Source: a virus (lineage: Duplodnaviria > Caudoviricetes). Taken from it: 50,081 nt of DNA. The notes beneath the pieces are model-generated. The model was not told the origin of the DNA and made no database searches. It saw only the letters and a list, made by a program, of their open reading frames with translations. Positions within the stretch are counted from its first letter, which is position 1, and each line of letters starts with the position of its first letter. This document shows, in pieces, positions 2,194-50,081 of this stretch. The stretch covers positions 1 to 50,081 of the IMG/VR virus record IMGVR_UViG_3300035670_000313. The stretch is one strand, 5' to 3'. A program made the translations under genes and the position numbers.

Positions 2194-3297
2194 ATGACTG
2201 AAAAGATTACCGCACGTCAGCTTGAGGCTGCAAAGCTCCTTGAGGGAGCACTCCGTGGTGACCGCGCAGACAAGCTAAAGCTACAGGAAGGTATCTCTAC
2301 CTCTGACCTGCCAGTACAGCTTGCTCCAACCATCAACAAGATTATGTTGGAGAACTACGCAGCTCAGCCAAAGGTCTGGGACCGCTTCGCAACCCGTCTA
2401 GTCGTTGACGACTTCCGCCCAGTAACCTTCCAGGCTATGCGCTACGAAGACGAGGGTATGGACAACGCAGGCGACAAGTTCCGCGATGGCTCACTACCTA
2501 CCGTTGCTGAGTACAGCGAGTACCCAACCGCTGGTTGGTTCAACGTAACCGAGCAGACCATGTCTGTGAAGAAGGCAGGAACTCGTATCCGCTTCTCATG
2601 GGAGACCATCGTTAACGACGGTCAGATTGGTCTACTAGAGCGTCTACCTATCGAGCTTGCACAGAAGGCAGCTGGCAAGGAAGATGAGGAAGTTACCAAG
2701 CAGCTAGTTTCTGACTCCGGTCTAAACACCGCTAACTTCAAGTCAGCAAACCAGAACCTACTAGCTGGAAACCCAGCTCTTACCCTAGAGTCCCTAGAGG
2801 ACGCAATCGAGGCTGCTAACCTGCAGACCTGGCAGGGTAACCTAATCACCCCAATTACCCGTTTCGCACTAGTTGTACCTCGTGCGCTAGAGATGACCGC
2901 TCGTCGCATCCTTGCTGTTCAGCAGGTTCGCACCGAGACCACCTCTGGTTCAACCGTAACCTCTCTTGTAACCGGAAACCCAATCGGTTCACAGGTTGAG
3001 ATTGTTGTCAACGACTGGCTAACCAAGATTAACTCTGGCGCTGGCAACTACTGGTTCCTGATTCCAGTTCCTGGACAGTCCCTAAACCCAGGTGTAGCCC
3101 TTGGCTTCCTCCGTGGTTACGAGACCCCAGAGCTACGTATCAAGATGAACGGTGGCACCTACCTAGGTGGCGGCGACGTTCCTGCTCGTGAGGGTTCGTT
3201 CGACAACGACGACTTCGAGATGAGAATCCGTCACATCGCAACTGGTGGCTTCATTGTCCCAACCGGTACCATCGCTTCAACTGGAGCTGGTGCCTAA
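2194..3297 (+). CDS. Major capsid protein
   Basis: 367 aa, position, strongly biased codon use, followed by terminator. Confidence 0.85.
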   Translation: MTEKITARQLEAAKLLEGALRGDRADKLKLQEGISTSDLPVQLAPTINKIMLENYAAQPKVWDRFATRLVVDDFRPVTFQAMRYEDEGMDNAGDKFRDGSLPTVAEYSEYPTAGWFNVTEQTMSVKKAGTRIRFSWETIVNDGQIGLLERLPIELAQKAAGKEDEEVTKQLVSDSGLNTANFKSANQNLLAGNPALTLESLEDAIEAANLQTWQGNLITPITRFALVVPRALEMTARRILAVQQVRTETTSGSTVTSLVTGNPIGSQVEIVVNDWLTKINSGAGNYWFLIPVPGQSLNPGVALGFLRGYETPELRIKMNGGTYLGGGDVPAREGSFDNDDFEMRIRHIATGGFIVPTGTIASTGAGA

Positions 3298-3322
3298 ACC
3301 TTAACCTTCTTTCTTGGTTAAA

Positions 3323-3360
3323 GAAAGCCCCTCAGGACCTTGAAGCCCTGGGGGGTTTTC
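3323..3360 (+). terminator. Intrinsic terminator after capsid gene
   Basis: AAAGCCCCTCAGG...CCTGGGGGGTTTT hairpin with T tract. Confidence 0.75.
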
Positions 3361-3416
3361 CCTTTCTGGATGGTCTATAATAGTTGACCCCCAAAAAATT
3401 AAAGAAGGATTGTTCT

Positions 3417-3647
3417 ATGTCTCAAGTAACGGTTTACACTCTTCCCTCCTGTGTGCAATGCGACAGCACTAAGCGATACTTGAAACGAGAACTAATCGAT
3501 TTTGTGGAAGTGCAGCTCCAGGATGACCCACAGGCGTACGAAATGGTCAGGGCTAAGGGATTTACTCAGGCACCAGTTGTAATGGCCGGAGAACGCATCT
3601 GGAGCGGTTTTAGAATGGATGAGCTCAAAGCCCTTAAGGCTGCTTAG
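3417..3647 (+). CDS. nrdH: NrdH-like glutaredoxin
   Basis: VTVYT..CVQC..TKR, APVV, WSGFR motifs. Confidence 0.9.
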   Translation: MSQVTVYTLPSCVQCDSTKRYLKRELIDFVEVQLQDDPQAYEMVRAKGFTQAPVVMAGERIWSGFRMDELKALKAA

Positions 3648-3672
3648 TTTTATTCTCTGGTATAATATAAAT

Positions 3673-3751
3673 AGTTGCGGCTCCTCCTTCTGCAACTTAT
3701 ATAGTGCACTACAAGCCCGCCCTGTTGAGTAATCTCCGGGGCGGGTTTCTT
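3673..3751 (+). ncRNA. Candidate small RNA with anti-Shine-Dalgarno hairpin loop
   Basis: TGG-TATAAT (3658-3666); 8-bp stem AGTTGCGG/CTGCAACT with loop CTCCTCCTT; terminator hairpin 3713-3751; no ORF. Confidence 0.65.
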
Positions 3752-3778
3752 ATAGCTGCCTGATAGAATTGTAGAACC

Positions 3779-4588
3779 ATGATTATTTGGCCCGATAACG
3801 GACTGCCGCCTCAAGCCCAGGAGTGGGCCGATAAAGTTGAGACGGAAGTTACCCGTATCGACAAGAAGACGGGCGGAAGCGGAGCTTCAGGCTCAGATGG
3901 TGCTCGTGGTCCTCAGGGGCCACAAGGTCCTGCTGGCCCTCAAGGTATTCAGGGCCCGAAAGGAGACCAAGGTGAACAAGGTCCTCAAGGTGAACAAGGC
4001 TTACAAGGCGAAGTCGGACCTGAAGGGCCTATTGGCCCTCAGGGAGCTCAAGGTGAGATGGGCCCTGCTGGGCCTCAAGGCGAACCCGGCCCCCAAGGTT
4101 TGCAGGGCGAGCAAGGTCCTGCCGGTCCAACTGGACCAACCGGTCCGCAGGGTGACACAGGACCTATGGGTCCTATGGGACCACAAGGACCACAAGGTGA
4201 AGTCGGTGCTACTGGACCGATGGGTCCAATGGGAGAGACGGGCCCAGAGGGGCCTATGGGTCCTCAGGGTATTCAAGGCCCAACTGGAGCTACAGGTCCT
4301 CAGGGCCCTAAGGGCGATACTGGGTCACAAGGTCTAGACGGCCTATCGGCTTATCAGGTAGCTCAGCTTAACGGTTTTACTGGCACAGAGCAGGAATGGC
4401 TTGACAGCCTTGTTGGAGCCGATGGTGCTACGGGACCACAGGGTCCCCAAGGTATCCAAGGAGAAACTGGCCCTCAGGGTCCAGCTGGAGCCGACGGACA
4501 ACCGTATGGTAATATTGATGGAGGAAAAGCTAATAGTGTTTATGGCGGGATTAGTCCACTATTGGGCGGAAATGCGAGTAGTTTTTAA
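3779..4588 (+). CDS. Collagen-like fibre protein
   Basis: Long G-X-Y repeat; [22 protein letters not shown] motif. Confidence 0.85.
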
Positions 4589-4793: not shown

Positions 4794-6122
4794 ATGGCAT
4801 TACCAACCAACGTTAATTACGGCACAGTAGTAGGCCAATTCCTACTTGCTTACGCTGACAGCTCGGATGTCGACCCACAACCAGATGGCATTCCTGCTAA
4901 AGGTTTTATTTACTTCCGTCCATCCCCAATTAAGCTTCTTGATGCCACTTCATCGCCTAACCCAGTAACCATTCTTCCTGCAGTTGTTGAGTGTGCGCTT
5001 GATGCTGAGGGTTACCTACTTGGTGGAGACGGAACTCGTGGCGTAAGACTAGTTGCAACTACTGACACTGACCTAAACCCAGTTAACTGGACTTGGACTG
5101 TAGAGTTCCGCCTGACTGACCAGGACGATGTTCCGGTCCCACTTCCATCTTTTAGCATTGCGCTTCCATCTAGCACAACCGTAGACCTAACCACTGTTAG
5201 CCCTGTGCCTGACGCAAATGGCACCTACTATCTAGTTGGACCGACTGGCCCTCAGGGACCCCAGGGTATCCAGGGTATCCAGGGTGAAGCTGCTACCATT
5301 ACCGTTGGTACCGTTACGACTGGGGCCGAGGGTTCTAGCGCATCTGTAGTCAACTCAGGAACTTCTGGCGATGCCGTTCTAGACTTTACAATCCCACGCG
5401 GAGACACAGGCGCTCAGGGACCAATTGGACCACAGGGTGAGACTGGACCGATTGGTCCAACCGGTGCGACTGGTATCGAGTGGCAGGGCGCATGGAACAG
5501 CTCTACTGACTATGTAAACAACGATGCAGTGTTTTACAATGGCGCTTCATGGTTTGCAGCAGGTGACCCTCCAGTTGGTGATACGCCATCAGAATCTTCA
5601 CTTTACTGGTTCCCGCTAGCCCTTCAGGGTGCCACTGGAGCGACAGGTCCACAAGGACCACAGGGTGAGGTTGGCCCACAAGGTGAGCAGGGTATTCAGG
5701 GTGAAATCGGATTCCCAGGATTTAAATTTGATACTCGTAGAACCCTAACTAACCAGTATGTTCCTGGTGAGATTGTAGAATATCTTGGCGACTACTTTAT
5801 CTGCCTGGCAAACAACGATGCCATACCGCCAACAGGCGGAGCAATCGGCGTTTACTGGGCCCCATATTCCTTCGTAGGGCCACAGGGAGATGCTGCGACA
5901 ATTGCAGTTGGCACAGTGACCACTGGCGCTCCTGGAAGCTCTGTAATCGTTACAAATTCTGGAACTAGCGGAGCCGCAGTATTTGACTTCACTATCCCAA
6001 AGGGTGACACTGGTGACATCGGAAACATCACCGCAATCTCTCCAGTAACCTATAACTCAGCAACCGCCGAGATTGGCTTTGACCCAGATGGCATCGCCTA
6101 CATCGACGGTGGAACTGCATGA
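4794..6122 (+). CDS. Minor tail/fibre protein with collagen segments
   Basis: G-X-Y blocks, two copies of ATI.VGTVTTG...NSGTSG.AV.DFTIP.G, small CBM-like modules. Confidence 0.75.
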   Translation: MALPTNVNYGTVVGQFLLAYADSSDVDPQPDGIPAKGFIYFRPSPIKLLDATSSPNPVTILPAVVECALDAEGYLLGGDGTRGVRLVATTDTDLNPVNWTWTVEFRLTDQDDVPVPLPSFSIALPSSTTVDLTTVSPVPDANGTYYLVGPTGPQGPQGIQGIQGEAATITVGTVTTGAEGSSASVVNSGTSGDAVLDFTIPRGDTGAQGPIGPQGETGPIGPTGATGIEWQGAWNSSTDYVNNDAVFYNGASWFAAGDPPVGDTPSESSLYWFPLALQGATGATGPQGPQGEVGPQGEQGIQGEIGFPGFKFDTRRTLTNQYVPGEIVEYLGDYFICLANNDAIPPTGGAIGVYWAPYSFVGPQGDAATIAVGTVTTGAPGSSVIVTNSGTSGAAVFDFTIPKGDTGDIGNITAISPVTYNSATAEIGFDPDGIAYIDGGTA

Positions 6123-8522: not shown

Positions 8523-8545
8523 CCTAGAAATGGTAAAATAAGAAC

Positions 8546-9409
8546 ATGGCTATTAACTTCCCTGATTCCCCGACAACCGGAGACTCCTTTACTGCTGCTG
8601 GGCGCACGTGGGTGTGGGATGGCAGCACTTGGAATAACGACGCTACCTCAGAGTTTGACACTGTGCAGTTTGACACTACCGCTGGCGCTATTGCTGGCAC
8701 AGGTGAGCTTGCATGGAACTCAAACATGGAGACTCTTGACCTTGGCCTAGATGCAAACGTAACGCTCCAGGTTGGTCAAGAGCATGTAATCCGCGTCAAG
8801 AACGCATCGGCCTCTGTGGCAATTCCTAACGGCACAGTAGTGATGTTTGCTGGAGCAACTGGTGACACTGTAACCGTGTCGCCAATGGTTGCCAATGGAA
8901 CTGTATCATCAGAGTATCTAGTTGGAATTGCAACCGAGACTATTCCTGCAGACGGCTTTGGCTTTGTCACTCAGTTCGGTTTTGTTAATGGCCTAGACAC
9001 TACTGCATGGCCTGCAGGAACTGTTCTTTACGCAAACCCAGCCGTGAACGGCGGCCTTACTGCAACTGAGCCTCAGGCACCAAACCTAAAGCTTGAGATT
9101 GCAGCTGTAACCAGAAGCCACGCAACCACTGGCCGCCTACTTGTGCGTGTTCACACGGGCGAAAAGATTAGCGGTCTCCACGACGTTCAGATTGCAACTC
9201 CAGTTCACGGTCAGGTGCTAAAGTACGATGACGGCCAGCTTCGCTGGGAGAACGCAGACCTGACTACTGCCGACCTTGATGACGTAGCAATTACCTCTCC
9301 AACCAACGGCCAGTCACTGACTTATAACGCAGCAACTGGCAAGTGGGTCAACAGCGCAGCAGCAGCCACAGGCGAGACCATCTCTTCGTTCTTGCTCATG
9401 GGTGCCTGA
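8546..9409 (+). CDS. Fibre/minor virion protein
   Basis: MAINFPDSP...WVWDG.TW start; two L.DV.I..P..GQ.L.Y....W.N repeats. Confidence 0.7.
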   Translation: MAINFPDSPTTGDSFTAAGRTWVWDGSTWNNDATSEFDTVQFDTTAGAIAGTGELAWNSNMETLDLGLDANVTLQVGQEHVIRVKNASASVAIPNGTVVMFAGATGDTVTVSPMVANGTVSSEYLVGIATETIPADGFGFVTQFGFVNGLDTTAWPAGTVLYANPAVNGGLTATEPQAPNLKLEIAAVTRSHATTGRLLVRVHTGEKISGLHDVQIATPVHGQVLKYDDGQLRWENADLTTADLDDVAITSPTNGQSLTYNAATGKWVNSAAAATGETISSFLLMGA

Positions 9410-12135: not shown

Positions 12136-12149
12136 GGTATAATAGAAGC

Positions 12150-12491
12150 ATGTCACATTTCGCAGAACTAGATGAGAACAACATTGTCACCCGTGTGCTC
12201 GTTGGTGACAACAACATGCCAAACGAGGGCTACGACTGGTTCGTAGAGAACTTGGGCGGACGCTGGATTCAGACCAGCTACAACGCAACTATCCGCAAGA
12301 ACTTTGCAGGCATCGGCTTTACTTACGATGAAGAGCGTGATGCCTTTATCCCACCTAAGCCATTTGAGAGCTGGACCCTAAATGAAGGAACCTGCCGCTG
12401 GATGGCACCTGTGCCATATCCGCAGGATGGTAGAATATACAGATGGGATGAAGAGTCCCTCGCATGGATTGAGGAAAGAATAGATGTCTGA
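12150..12491 (+). CDS. Hypothetical phage protein
   Basis: MSHFAELDENNIV...WIQTSYN...RKNFAGIG pattern common next to Gly-rich phage genes. Confidence 0.65.
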   Translation: MSHFAELDENNIVTRVLVGDNNMPNEGYDWFVENLGGRWIQTSYNATIRKNFAGIGFTYDEERDAFIPPKPFESWTLNEGTCRWMAPVPYPQDGRIYRWDEESLAWIEERIDV

Positions 12492-15102: not shown

Positions 15103-15116
15103 GATAAAATAGAACT

Positions 15117-15521
15117 ATGCCTACCACGCCAGACATCTACCCACCAGACTACGCAAGCGCAGCTGGTCAGGTAAGACTACTTATTCCAGACACCGAGCAG
15201 CTAGAGAACCTGGCTGACCCGACTGCGGCTGCATCATACCTGTTTAACGACTCGCAAATCCAGGCGTTCCTAACCCTGTACGGCAACAACGTAAAGCGAG
15301 CTGCAGCTCAGGCTAAGCTTGTGCTGTCTACCTCAGAGTCTCTAATCAACAAGGTCATCCGCACTGCGGATTACACCACCGACGGAGCCAAGCTAGGCGC
15401 AGAACTTCGTGCACAATCAGCTGCCCTTATGGCAGAAGCAGATAAGGATGAAGCAGAGGATTCGTACGAGGAGATTGCAATCGTCTCATTCACCACGAAG
15501 CCCGATAACTCATGGCTCTAA
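15117..15521 (+). CDS. Head-to-tail adaptor
   Basis: GQVRLLIPD...FNDSQIQAFL...RAAA; first neck gene. Confidence 0.75.
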   Translation: MPTTPDIYPPDYASAAGQVRLLIPDTEQLENLADPTAAASYLFNDSQIQAFLTLYGNNVKRAAAQAKLVLSTSESLINKVIRTADYTTDGAKLGAELRAQSAALMAEADKDEAEDSYEEIAIVSFTTKPDNSWL

Positions 15522-28066: not shown

Positions 28067-28080
28067 GATAAAATAGACAC

Positions 28081-28443
28081 ATGGCAACTACTCCAAAGGG
28101 AATCTATTACCCAACCGCAAGCGACCAGGTAGCACCGCTACACACCGTGTTCGCTGGCGTTGCCTCAAGCGTTGATGCGGCCCTGCCCCTATCTGGCAGC
28201 GAGGCTGTCAGCTTCAGCGGAACAACTGCGGGTGCAACTCAGACCGTGACTGTAACCTTTGCCACTACCCAGCCGACTGCGCCATCTAAAATCTTAGCAA
28301 CTGTGCGTGGGCCAGTCAGCGGCTCTAGCTCCTATGTCGTGACGGTTATGAACAGTACAACCACAAGCTTTACTGCAATTATCTATAGGCTGAACGCGGG
28401 CTCAGCACAAAACATTAACCTAGTCTGGTCGGTGATGAACTAA
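28081..28443 (+). CDS. Small virion/tail protein
   Basis: MATTPKGIYYP start, beta-rich. Confidence 0.55.
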   Translation: MATTPKGIYYPTASDQVAPLHTVFAGVASSVDAALPLSGSEAVSFSGTTAGATQTVTVTFATTQPTAPSKILATVRGPVSGSSSYVVTVMNSTTTSFTAIIYRLNAGSAQNINLVWSVMN

Positions 28444-30766: not shown

Positions 30767-31431
30767 TAATCTACCTTCAATCCATTGACCCAAGTTCTGC
30801 CAGCGTCACCGCCCCAAGCGTCCCACGCAACGCGTCCTGGGCTTGGGTAGCCCTTCTCGCCCGCATTGAAACCAGTGGCCTGCTTGTCCACTGCATGGCG
30901 AGCAAAGTAAGCCCGCATCTTTACTACTACATCTCGGCCTACAGAGCCACCAGCAGCGAGCTGTGAAGCTCGACGGCGACCAGTCGCAGTAAAGCCATCG
31001 CCAGCCTTGCCTTCTTCAATCCACTTGATTGCTCGCTTAGCTGCACTCTGGACTCCAGCTGGAACCTTGTAGCTTGCAGCTGCTTCACGCAGTGACTCTC
31101 TTGCGTTTACAAGCCCGGGAGGAATCATTGCAAATCGACATGCGCCATCCTCTTCGATGTCCTGGTCAATCGCACTGCACTCAATCCCATCCTCGGTCAT
31201 CTGGTGGAACACACAGTTACCGCACTTTACACCAATCTCAAGGTTTGGGTTGTCAGCGGGTCCATCGTAGCCAGCATTTACTGCGCTGCCTTCGGACTGG
31301 AACTTGCCGAACTCTTGTACAACGCCGAGTAGAGCATCAACCACTGCCTTCTCGTCGCCATCAATCTGTGCGTAAAGGTCCTCGCTGAACTCTTTTACTC
31401 TAATAGGTAGTTTCTTTTTGCTCGCTGGCAT
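30766..31431 (-). CDS. Two-domain protein: HiPIP-like 4-Cys domain plus conserved phage domain (AWDAWGG)
   Basis: CGNCVF...C...IEEDGACRF; KMRAYFARH...PSPGRVAWDAWGGDAG. Confidence 0.6.
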   Translation of the reverse strand: MPASKKKLPIRVKEFSEDLYAQIDGDEKAVVDALLGVVQEFGKFQSEGSAVNAGYDGPADNPNLEIGVKCGNCVFHQMTEDGIECSAIDQDIEEDGACRFAMIPPGLVNARESLREAAASYKVPAGVQSAAKRAIKWIEEGKAGDGFTATGRRRASQLAAGGSVGRDVVVKMRAYFARHAVDKQATGFNAGEKGYPSPGRVAWDAWGGDAGRTWVNGLKVD

Positions 31432-31874
31432 TAATCCCCCCACCCTTCCTTTAATATAGTTGCATGTTTGTTATTGCGTAGGTAAATTATACCATGGCGG
31501 ACCGCGTCGTTGGCGTGGGGCCTGCCTGGGGCGTGGAATCCAAGCTTACGGAGTCGGTCATCTCCACAGAGTGCCTTTTGGCTTGGCTTCTGGTAGATAA
31601 TAGGTGTCAGTGCCTTGGGGTATAATGCTTCCAATGCACCGATGATGTAGACAGGGCTAAGGTCAGCCCCATAAACACCCTCTCGCAAGTCGAATGACTC
31701 ACAGATAATCTGGTCGAACTCCCAATCTTCTAGTTCGTCCCAGTGGAAGTCAAGGAATCCCTGCAAACCATTTGGAATCTGCCAAGTTTTGATTAGGTTG
31801 TACTCTGTGTCTCCGTATTCAATTATGGCTACTCCAGTTGTCCCGCCGGGGTCAAGGCTTAGCATTGTCGTCAT
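31431..31874 (-). CDS. RuvC-like Holliday junction resolvase
   Basis: LSLDPGGTTGVA, ICESF, HANDA. Confidence 0.8.
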   Translation of the reverse strand: MTTMLSLDPGGTTGVAIIEYGDTEYNLIKTWQIPNGLQGFLDFHWDELEDWEFDQIICESFDLREGVYGADLSPVYIIGALEALYPKALTPIIYQKPSQKALCGDDRLRKLGFHAPGRPHANDAVRHGIIYLRNNKHATILKEGWGD

Positions 31875-42451: not shown

Positions 42452-42657
42452 TAGTCCTCCTCTATAACCCTAAACTCAAATCCATTATCGCCTTCTTGTT
42501 TGGCTCTCTCAAACTCTTCCTCGCTCTCAAAGTAGTAGAACACTCTGCTGTCGTCCTCCTCGCTTAGCGGGTCGAATGGTTCATCAATCGCAACCTTGGT
42601 GGCAATCGGTGTATCGCCGTCATGCCATTGAATCAGAACATCAACTAGGTAACTCAC
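42451..42657 (-). CDS. Hypothetical acidic protein
   Basis: Coupled ORF, probable GTG start. Confidence 0.5.
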   Translation of the reverse strand: MSYLVDVLIQWHDGDTPIATKVAIDEPFDPLSEEDDSRVFYYFESEEEFERAKQEGDNGFEFRVIEED

Positions 42658-43016
42658 TAGTAAACCTCCGCCCAAACATAGCCATTCTCGCTTCGGTAAA
42701 AGTCATGGCGCAAGTTCTTGTCCCATGTCTTCTCCCAATCCACCTCTAGGTAAGTTTGAATGGTGGACTCGGTGTCATAGTTCTCAAAGTAGAACTTAGC
42801 AAAGTCCGCGGTTGAATCGTGTTGCCCGTAGTAGCTGTCGGTCTCCCACTCAATCCACTTTTCTAGGTTCTCGCGGATTACCTCTAGTCGCTCTGGCTCT
42901 GTGCTGTAATTGCCAACCAACCCGACATAGTCGGCTAGTCGGTCGAAATCCTCATGCTCTAGCCCTAGCTCTTCGGCTACTAGCTCTAGCTCTTCTGCGG
43001 TTGCGTGAATAAACAT
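42657..43016 (-). CDS. ArdA-like acidic anti-restriction (DNA mimic) candidate
   Basis: YYGQHDS.ADFA...Y.EVDWEK.....D.Y...GYVW; very acidic; own promoter. Confidence 0.55.
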   Translation of the reverse strand: MFIHATAEELELVAEELGLEHEDFDRLADYVGLVGNYSTEPERLEVIRENLEKWIEWETDSYYGQHDSTADFAKFYFENYDTESTIQTYLEVDWEKTWDKNLRHDFYRSENGYVWAEVY

Positions 43017-44255: not shown

Positions 44256-44539
44256 TATGAAATTGTGAATTGTTTTATATAACATAATCCGAATTGTGTT
44301 ATAAATCTATCTTTTAGATGGATACCTAACAAGTAGCCACCTAACACTATTCGGCGTTGTCTGAGAGTTGGCTGGGAAAAATCGAAGGATTTTGCCCGCG
44401 ACACGCCGTAAAAATTCCAAATCTCAGAACGCGTTTAGTAAATAATATTATGTATTATTATAAAATAATAAAACATAATGTAATGGGAGGGGGGTGTCGG
44501 CTAAAAGTGTGAAAATTAGTCTAGCCCCCCTAGACAAAA

Positions 44540-44665
44540 CTAGTCCTCGAATTCTGTAACTTCGATTAGCAACTTCTGAATCCGCGACACCTTCTCGCGG
44601 TGTTCTTGTGAATCTTCCGCATAGAATAGTGTTGCTAGGTAATCGAACACTTGTTCGGTTGTCAT
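44540..44665 (-). CDS. 41-aa early protein (not in ORF track)
   Basis: AGGAGG RBS, MTTEQVFDYLATLFY...; promoter at 44699-44728. Confidence 0.55.
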   Translation of the reverse strand: MTTEQVFDYLATLFYAEDSQEHREKVSRIQKLLIEVTEFED

Positions 44666-49335: not shown

Positions 49336-50081
49336 ATGGATTTCAGCAAACTTACCGAGCAATTATCTGCAATTGCAAACGAGAATGAGTTGCTTCGAGA
49401 GTCCTACCAGTCCATGGCCCAGGCTATCTTGGCATTTGATGACAATGGCTGGAACGAAGTTAGTGCTGCAGCGAGCGTCGACGAGTTCGCACTGCAGGAT
49501 TTGAAGGACGCATCCAAGAGAATCCGTGAACTTACCGAGGGTAACCCACTTCTAAAGCGTGGTGCTGCACTTCGCACCAGCTACGTCTTCGGTAAGGGAA
49601 TTAACTTTGGCGAGCTACAGCCTCGCTTCCGCCGCTTTATCGACGACCCTGTGAACCAAGACACTGTCTTCTCTCCAGAGGCACAGGCCATCAACGAGCG
49701 CAGCCACTTCACTGACGGCCAGTTCTTCCTGCTTGCAAACGTGGCAACCAAGCAGTTCCAGCGCATTCCCTTCTCTGAGATTAGCGCAGTGGTCACCAAC
49801 CCTGACAACCCAGAAGAGCTTTGGTACATCCGCCGCACCTGGACCCGCAAGGGCCAGAACCTTGCAGGTCAGGGCAGCCAGGACGTTGCACTAAACGTCT
49901 GGTACCCAGTTGACACTTACAAGCCAGCCAACGGACGCTACGTCCCACGCATCGGCGAGTACCCAGTGGACGCAAAGTTCCTAATGTTCCCAAGCCGCGT
50001 GAACCGTCGCGCTGGCCGCACCTTCGGAACCCCTGACGCTTTGCCAGCTGTGCCATGGGCCCACGCTTACAACGAGTTCCT
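49336..50081 (+). CDS. Portal protein, N-terminal part
   Basis: ATG 49336 with RBS GAGGA; open to window end and in frame with 12-791. Confidence 0.85.
   Translation, partial: MDFSKLTEQLSAIANENELLRESYQSMAQAILAFDDNGWNEVSAAASVDEFALQDLKDASKRIRELTEGNPLLKRGAALRTSYVFGKGINFGELQPRFRRFIDDPVNQDTVFSPEAQAINERSHFTDGQFFLLANVATKQFQRIPFSEISAVVTNPDNPEELWYIRRTWTRKGQNLAGQGSQDVALNVWYPVDTYKPANGRYVPRIGEYPVDAKFLMFPSRVNRRAGRTFGTPDALPAVPWAHAYNEF
49955..50081. repeat. Terminal direct repeat copy
   Basis: Identical to 1-127. Confidence 0.95.

Follow-up and report, generated by a model that had tools for sequence, protein, structure and literature searches.

The stretch of DNA that we have analysed, here called the window, is the record of a virus, 50,081 bases long and bearing terminal repeats, and represents a complete phage genome of about 50 kb. 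Since the portal gene spans the two ends of the record (1-791 and 49336-50079), the record has been cut inside a gene. The genes that follow code for the protease, the decoration protein and the major capsid protein, and after the capsid gene come a terminator (about 3326-3362) and a gene for an NrdH-like glutaredoxin (nrdH), a cassette lodged between this terminator and the promoter of a putative small RNA. Downstream of the small-RNA unit the window continues with collagen-like and Mtd_N-type fibre genes. The coordinates of the locus are collected in Table 1. Elsewhere in the same genome, positions 799-828 hold another TGGTATAAT followed by a short leader with the hairpin TTAATC...GATTAA and then by the ATG of the protease gene, with no Shine-Dalgarno (SD) sequence, and the opposite-strand module contains, at 42657-43016 on the minus strand, a weak match to ArdA-like antirestriction proteins (E = 1.4e-4, below the Pfam cut-off).

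Table 1. Features at and around the predicted small-RNA unit of the window.
Feature	Position	Strand	Remarks
Major capsid protein gene	2194-3297	+	the small RNA is downstream of the capsid gene in all relatives
NrdH-like glutaredoxin gene	3417-3647	+	own -10 box TATAAT at 3376-3381
Extended -10 promoter of the small RNA, TGGTATAAT	3658-3666	+	TATAAT at 3661-3666; direct reading
Stem-loop 1	3673-3697	+	5' arm AGTTGCGG (3673-3680), loop CTCCTCCTT (3681-3689), 3' arm CTGCAACT (3690-3697)
Unpaired linker	3698-3712	+	reading of the window and its relatives
Intrinsic terminator	3713-3751	+	fold and covariation
Next -10 box, GATAGAAT, and fibre ATG	3762-3781	+	box 3762-3769, TAGAAT from 3764, ATG at 3779
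Collagen-like fibre gene	3779-4588	+	directly 3' of the small-RNA unit

An earlier, sequence-only reading of this DNA had proposed that an extended -10 promoter, a hairpin with a 9-nt loop and a terminator form a dedicated RNA at this site, and that the next gene has a -10 box of its own. Direct reading finds all of these elements at the claimed places, and a separate -10 box of the next gene is also kept in the relatives. The promoter has no recognisable -35, the first base of the stem (A3673) stands 6 bases past the -10 box, and the transcript is predicted to start at or near this base. Stem-loop 1 consists of eight pairs, one of them G·U, and its loop reads CUCCUCCUU as RNA. The terminator stem (3713-3748) is built from AAGCCCGCCCUG, a UU bulge, GAG, the loop UAAU, CUC and CGGGGCGGGUUU; its apex contains CUCC at 3734-3737, and a T-rich tail, U-rich in the RNA, completes it. 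Folded in isolation, the 78-nt RNA adopts exactly two hairpins and leaves the loop unpaired (-32.2 kcal/mol, z = -4.6), a stability that none of 200 shuffles matched. The extended -10 motif TGNTATAAT occurs 6 times in the window for 0.89 expected, a number reached by none of 100 shuffles. A simple consensus scan for promoters and terminators lists neither the promoter nor the terminator of the small RNA, since it recognises only promoters with a -35 hexamer and terminators whose stem has no bulge. The fibre ATG, 9 bases past GATAGAAT, is not preceded by an SD sequence, and its start is therefore leaderless or nearly so.

Relatives were collected by a capsid-based scan of viral contigs, from which the best 80 of 132 were kept, and a covariance model, R1, was built from 20 sequences. 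R1 finds one plus-strand match in 66 of 81 sources, which are the window (69.8 bits) and 65 of the 80 related loci, at 34.9-75 bits and E <= 5e-6. All 15 loci in which R1 has no match stop short of any fibre gene, and none of them has a fibre match; 17 further matches are weak (E 0.014-0.68) and are minus-strand readings of the palindromic terminators. In each of six genomes, the window and five others that are 97-100% complete, there is one strong match. The hairpin is identical letter for letter in only five contigs, and the other relatives carry the same unit with different stems.

Structure statistics were obtained for the 43 distinct versions of the unit. A MAFFT alignment of 39 extracted units misaligned stem-loop 1 in several rows, and the model-based alignment was used instead. 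In this alignment, which favours the modelled structure, 98.5% of the pair cells are standard, whereas shuffling leaves 73% and sliding the partners 43-53%, and none of 500 shuffles equalled the observed value; complementary stems of differing sequence are also plain in the unaligned relatives. Both sides have changed at 16 of the 19 pairs. The outer terminator stem covaries at 9 of 10 pairs, and in stem-loop 1, where 97.3% of the cells are paired, all six modelled pairs do so, with up to six pair types each. The terminator apex is instead kept in sequence, with its UU bulge, GAG, loop and CUCC (the 3' side of the apex is CUCC in 33 of 43 versions) and with invariant apical G-C and A-U pairs. 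Since the covariance cells contain 57 G·U and no A·C combinations, the plus strand is the RNA that folds. The loop core is CUCCU in 43/43 versions, CCUCC in 32/43 and CCUCCUU in 30/43, so that the check suggested by the sequence-only reading, covariation of the stem around an invariant loop, gave a positive answer. Loops measure 7-13 nt and the whole RNA 61-90 nt; the linker varies in length and sequence, is often GU-rich (UUGUGUGUUGUGU) and is missing from the shortest versions. A TAnnnT box lies 2-10 nt before the R1 match in all 43 versions, with the TG extension in 26, and downstream of the unit all 43 have a second -10 box, located 5-10 nt ahead of an ATG. The putative dedicated promoter, the terminator and the length of about 80 nt are thus all kept across the relatives.

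By these comparisons the unit is a conserved, single-copy, plus-strand element with a predicted structure that exposes an invariant loop resembling the anti-SD of 16S rRNA. It has the generic traits of a trans-acting small RNA at the level of sequence, namely its own -10 box, its own terminator, a short length and an unpaired CUCCU seed, and we consider it very probable that it is a real, stand-alone small-RNA gene whose product would measure about 78 nt in the window (3673 to about 3750). As regards its non-coding status, the sole ORF scan of the region took frames of at least 70 codons and displayed the top duplex hits only. Two runs with related sequence, represented by assembled contigs and one of them merely guessed to be RNA, are uninformative on transcription either way: at 88% likeness their contigs leave 3311-3613 uncovered, reach 3614-3714 in trace amounts and include one 151-nt contig over 3748-3898.

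Could the hairpin be a part of the 3'UTR or terminator of nrdH, or a chance hairpin devoid of function? In the window it does lie between the nrdH stop codon and the sole terminator that follows nrdH, and the loop 9-mer alone is not enriched there (21 occurrences with at most one mismatch for 13 expected, with 6 of 100 shuffles reaching 21; the only exact copies are at 3681 and 31882). The more-than-chance status of the unit comes from its conservation in relatives. Many of these have no nrdH and carry the unit directly after the capsid terminator, which makes the unit independent of nrdH, and in the family it covaries, keeps its loop invariant and retains a conserved -10 box of its own. An origin from nrdH or from chance is contradicted by the relatives without nrdH and by the covariation, and on these sequence comparisons we regard it as extremely improbable. 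The slot occupied by nrdH (3326-3647) is an insertion hot spot, in the window as well as in the related loci L005-L017, L037 and L067-L071: the window has nrdH alone, and other relatives have nrdH followed by further reading frames, other small genes, or an empty slot. The frames directly after nrdH in some relatives may be ribonucleotide reductase genes. In the related locus L021, the space separating the capsid gene from the small RNA contains a stretch (about 5130-5260) that ends in ...GAGTTCGATTCTCTGCTAGTCCACGCA and, by eye, resembles a tRNA gene.

The cultured phages nearest to the window, with about 40-46% identity in capsid and terminase, infect Arthrobacter, Microbacterium, Clavibacter and Curtobacterium. 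A nucleotide search of cultured phages with window positions 3300-4000 gave collagen-repeat matches only. R1, in turn, has a significant match in Clavibacter phage CN1A (29.6 bits, E = 2.9e-6). Directly after the capsid gene this phage has TGTGCTAAGCT and then a stem with the loop UUUCCUCCUUCU; its terminator shows the UU-GAG...CUCC apex of the R1 family and is followed by TGGTAGACT six bases before an ATG. With the R1 match, the -10 box, the CUCCU loop and the terminator apex all present, CN1A is, on this predicted structure, a member of the family. The ATG in question (about 2738, in frame, in locus L119) lies 34 codons before the annotated start (2840) of gene CN1A_54, and as it stands 6 nt after TGGTAGACT, CN1A_54 may be leaderless and longer than annotated.

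Units that look alike occur in three other cultured phages. In Jojan60, recorded as a Stenotrophomonas virus, the capsid gene is directly followed by TGGTAGGAT and a 7-bp stem closing the loop UUUCCUCCUUUC; the linker contains CUCCUCCC for a second time, and after it come a terminator and a box that reads GGTAGAAT. A candidate second copy at 5006-5074 of Jojan60 proved to be merely a terminator. Curtobacterium phage Yappy carries a three-hairpin unit after nrdH, whose first loop is UACCUCC and whose terminator loop is UGCCUCC, and in Arthrobacter phage Molivia a long hairpin, whose loop is UUCCUCC, immediately precedes GGTAGAAT, which six bases separate from an ATG. R1 is not significant on Jojan60 (13.8 bits) or Yappy (11.5 bits), and its match of 18.6 bits in Molivia falls on the capsid terminator, off the anti-SD hairpin. 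We therefore treat these three units as look-alikes recognised by eye and not as demonstrated members. As a separate observation, the record ON045087.1 (L089), whose host label is Stenotrophomonas maltophilia, codes for a WhiB-like regulator at 44281-44544 and has a capsid and a terminase closest to those of Micrococcales phages, a content typical of actinophages that is odd with respect to the host label.

The phages carrying the unit probably infect actinobacteria. The only cellular match of the capsid profile is a 1,860-base contig binned in a metagenome-assembled genome (MAG) titled Actinomycetota bacterium, which is weak evidence pointing to an actinobacterial host. In a genome near this candidate host MAG the 16S rRNA ends with ...GCGGCUGGAUCACCUCCUUUCU, its tail being GGAUCACCUCCUUUCU, and an exact stretch of this tail is present in stem-loop 1 over at least 7 nt in 35 of 43 versions and over at least 9 nt in 11, with a maximum of 11 nt. 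The claim that the loop equals the anti-SD tail of 16S rRNA is in this way borne out in the candidate host lineage. A further likeness, of the UGCGGCU stretch to helix 45 of 16S rRNA, holds within the window's own clade and is lost elsewhere; since the stems differ freely outside that clade, this likeness is not required. Host-encoded homologues were sought by running R1 on 61 genomes near the MAG, and the three weak matches obtained (28-38 bits) were rejected, one being the antisense of an SD sequence plus a terminator and the other two matching mainly by the terminator. One of these two (L095; G057:C39:19641-19728, minus strand) has 32 bits and a terminator very similar to that of the family, the loop of the hairpin before it contains ACUCC, and no clear -10 box was seen by eye.

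The constant position of the unit invites the view that it acts in cis, as a leader of the tail genes in which stem-loop 1 would be the site of an antitermination factor, or as an insulator that merely isolates capsid transcription from the fibre promoter. In all 61 loci with a fibre match the end of the unit is 17-32 nt from the ATG of the next gene, cassettes such as nrdH are inserted upstream of the unit and never between it and the fibre gene, and the conserved terminator apex would also fit. Against this, in 43/43 versions a -10 box belonging to the downstream gene is present 5-10 nt ahead of the ATG, and this gene lacks an SD sequence, so that a read-through RNA would be a poor message for the fibre gene. 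The Yappy unit, moreover, lies elsewhere, before a gene with a full promoter, the gene downstream of the Jojan60 unit is not a fibre gene, and a protein-binding site that equals the anti-SD in several unrelated stems and terminator loops would be a coincidence. We consider a cis-acting role unlikely. A similar layout is found in phage lambda, where the pR'-6S RNA-tR' region provides a strong promoter and a short, terminated RNA directly before the late structural genes. The phage unit described here shares with it the succession of promoter, short RNA, strong terminator and late genes, whereas its next gene has a promoter of its own and its conserved feature is the anti-SD loop; a Q-like factor or site as in lambda was not identified for the phage unit.

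Among known RNAs, those with hairpin loops that pair to ribosome-binding sites offer the closest parallels in design. Bacterial small RNAs of this kind are known: in Gram-positive bacteria, the 6C RNA of Actinobacteria and RsaE/RoxS use C-rich hairpin-loop seeds to pair with G-rich ribosome-binding regions, in hosts with no obvious dependence on Hfq. Their loops are described as C runs or UCCC, whereas that of the phage-encoded RNA is the literal 16S tail CCUCCUU, and the Rfam scan of the window region and six loci gave no match of the phage RNA to 6C or RsaE/RoxS. More generally, neither the window region nor any of six related loci has a match at threshold to an Rfam 15 family. The best sub-threshold match was that of the Betaproteobacteria toxic small RNA (RF02278) to the linker and terminator of Jojan60 (30.4 bits, E = 0.037, for a gathering score of 50), and the window and the four related loci that were scanned gave no match to this model. 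The two RNAs are alike in being short and in having a CUCCUCCC-type motif beside the terminator; they differ in host group, and the score stays below gathering.

The sequence-only reading had compared the RNA with the cuckoo family. As far as they are described in PMC4615179, cuckoo RNAs, which include RSs0680/CcsR and SmelC397, are alphaproteobacterial and consist of 2-4 hairpins side by side, all of which carry CCUCCUCCC in the loop. The phage RNA resembles them in its invariant, anti-SD-like pyrimidine loop, in the compensatory changes of its stem and in the occlusion of ribosome-binding sites that has been proposed (PMC4615179). It differs in having one anti-SD hairpin plus a terminator and a CCUCCUU loop, with CCUCCUCCC in 0/43 versions, and in its setting, a phage of a probably actinobacterial host as opposed to an alphaproteobacterial chromosome. 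The cuckoo-related Rfam models had no match in window positions 3000-4500 at E <= 10 or in six loci at E <= 1. The comparison thus stands for the analogy, that is, for the invariant loop and the covarying stems, and fails as an assignment to that family; the resemblance is one of design, not of descent. A full-text literature search, with subscription journals mostly outside its coverage, returned no phage family with a literal 16S anti-SD tail in a loop. We conclude that the unit defines a new family of predicted RNAs, R1, which is absent from Rfam 15 and occurs in numerous uncultured phages as well as at least one phage in culture.

What could an RNA with such a loop do? The distribution of SD sequences in these genomes bears on this question. 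GGAGG was scored within 24 nt upstream of the gene starts, comparing the structural strand with the opposite strand. With curated gene starts, the window has GGAGG before 0/35 structural and 9/25 opposite-strand genes (p = 1.4e-4), and with annotated genes Jojan60 has 1/26 and 27/43, respectively (p = 5.5e-7). For automated ORFs, the structural and opposite-strand counts are 0/43 and 14/28 in the window, 1/38 and 3/26 in G062, 3/38 and 0/21 in G063, 2/37 and 8/32 in G064, 2/40 and 6/33 in G065, and 0/30 and 5/28 in G066. Pooling these six genomes gives 8/226 against 36/168; the bias is seen in five of them, G063 showing the reverse. Leaderless-type starts, with a -10 box 5-9 nt before the ATG, show the opposite distribution (51/226 structural against 7/168 opposite-strand in the six genomes), and in the window they are found, without an SD sequence, at 3779, 8546, 12150, 15117 and 28081. 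These five starts, all of structural-module genes, lie 6-9 nt after GnTAnAAT boxes (stretches 8532-8548, 12136-12152, 15103-15119, 28067-28083 and 3762-3781), and the late region of the window has at least 10 intergenic -10 boxes of this type; with 26 occurrences in the window and 22 in shuffles, GnTAnAAT shows no enrichment by count, its intergenic placement alone being telling. Leaderless messages are common in Actinobacteria.

Since GGAGG is frequent on the opposite strand, an anti-SD RNA would bind the messages of the replication genes, and presumably those of the host, more strongly. We propose that the host RNA polymerase would transcribe the unit from the extended -10 promoter, producing an RNA that begins directly with the hairpin, displays in its loop a copy of the 16S anti-SD (CUCCU, mostly CCUCCUU) and ends at its own terminator. 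Used as a seed, the loop would pair in trans with purine-rich SD sequences of the GGAGG type and hinder the binding of the 30S subunit. Messages led by an SD sequence, from the opposite-strand replication genes and presumably from host genes, would be damped in this way, and late messages that are leaderless or have a weak SD sequence would be spared. An SD-pairing regulator is the best supported reading of the action that we infer for the RNA, and on the sequence evidence we incline towards it.

The bias of GGAGG between the two gene classes in the window, Jojan60 and the six genomes fits a whole class of targets. When stem-loop 1 was scanned for duplexes with every initiation region of six genomes, no conserved specific target emerged; the top predictions differ between genomes and include spurious ORFs. 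For three candidate targets of the window the orthologues have no extended complementarity, and the SD sequence of the primase/helicase gene weakens to AAGGA in two relatives. Many structural genes also keep AAGGA, which is able to pair with UCCUU, and the energies of duplexes between the loop and either gene class of the window do not differ significantly (p = 0.097). Three more specific candidates were rejected. Within the window, the 9-nt loop has a single exact complement, the SD sequence of the gene at 31431-31874, and orthologues do not retain it. Pairing with the coding region of the fibre gene was discarded since the nucleotides AGGAG of the Q-E-W codons are not conserved. Finally, a minus-strand gene using AAGGAGG as its SD sequence would have no start codon at a usable distance, and the G·U and A·C counts exclude that strand.

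That these scans and orthologue comparisons found no conserved mRNA target would suit a different proposal, in which an abundant RNA acts as a decoy of the 16S rRNA 3' tail and titrates a protein that recognises this tail, without pairing to mRNAs. Proteins with such a specificity exist: the assembly GTPase Era binds the 16S tail, and some MazF toxins cut the anti-SD. Candidate partners would be Era, one of the ribosomal proteins, or a toxin or nuclease of the host whose cleavage site in 16S rRNA is the anti-SD. The identity between loop and tail, CCUCCUU(UC) in the phage RNA, does reach past CCUCC to ACCUCCUUUC or UCACCUCCUU (the at least 9 nt seen in 11 of 43 versions), and the terminator apex, conserved in sequence and carrying a second CUCC in 33/43, has a pattern that fits a contact with protein. 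On the other side, the upstream bases of the tail are not conserved in the phage RNA: those 5' of CCUCC vary freely (UU, CC, GC, UA and others) and the GAUCA of the tail is not kept. In addition, the motif lies in the closed hairpin loop of an RNA of roughly 80 nt, whereas the tail is the free 3' end of a ribosomal RNA. We judge such a decoy improbable.

The preferred reading, pairing of the loop with SD sequences, has its own difficulties. A general masking of SD sequences would require very high levels of the RNA, and the seed model explains neither the fixed distance between the unit and the next ATG nor the conservation in sequence of the terminator apex. A stronger version of it, in which the RNA would serve as an RNA-based shut-off of host and early translation, an anti-SD mimic made in quantity from a near-consensus promoter beside the capsid gene that would coat GGAGG sites and favour late messages that are leaderless or have a weak SD sequence, is put forward only tentatively.

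The unit is present in 65 related viral contigs; the late genes of the genomes that carry it avoid GGAGG and are in many cases leaderless in appearance. The phage may use the RNA to redirect protein synthesis. If the proposed action is true, an RNA of 80 nt would separate the translation of the late phage genes from that of the host and of the early genes. The related units of the cultured phages CN1A, Jojan60, Yappy and Molivia make this proposal testable, and, if it holds, it would give a direct handle on the competition between leaderless and SD-led translation in actinobacteria, a question that has long been open.
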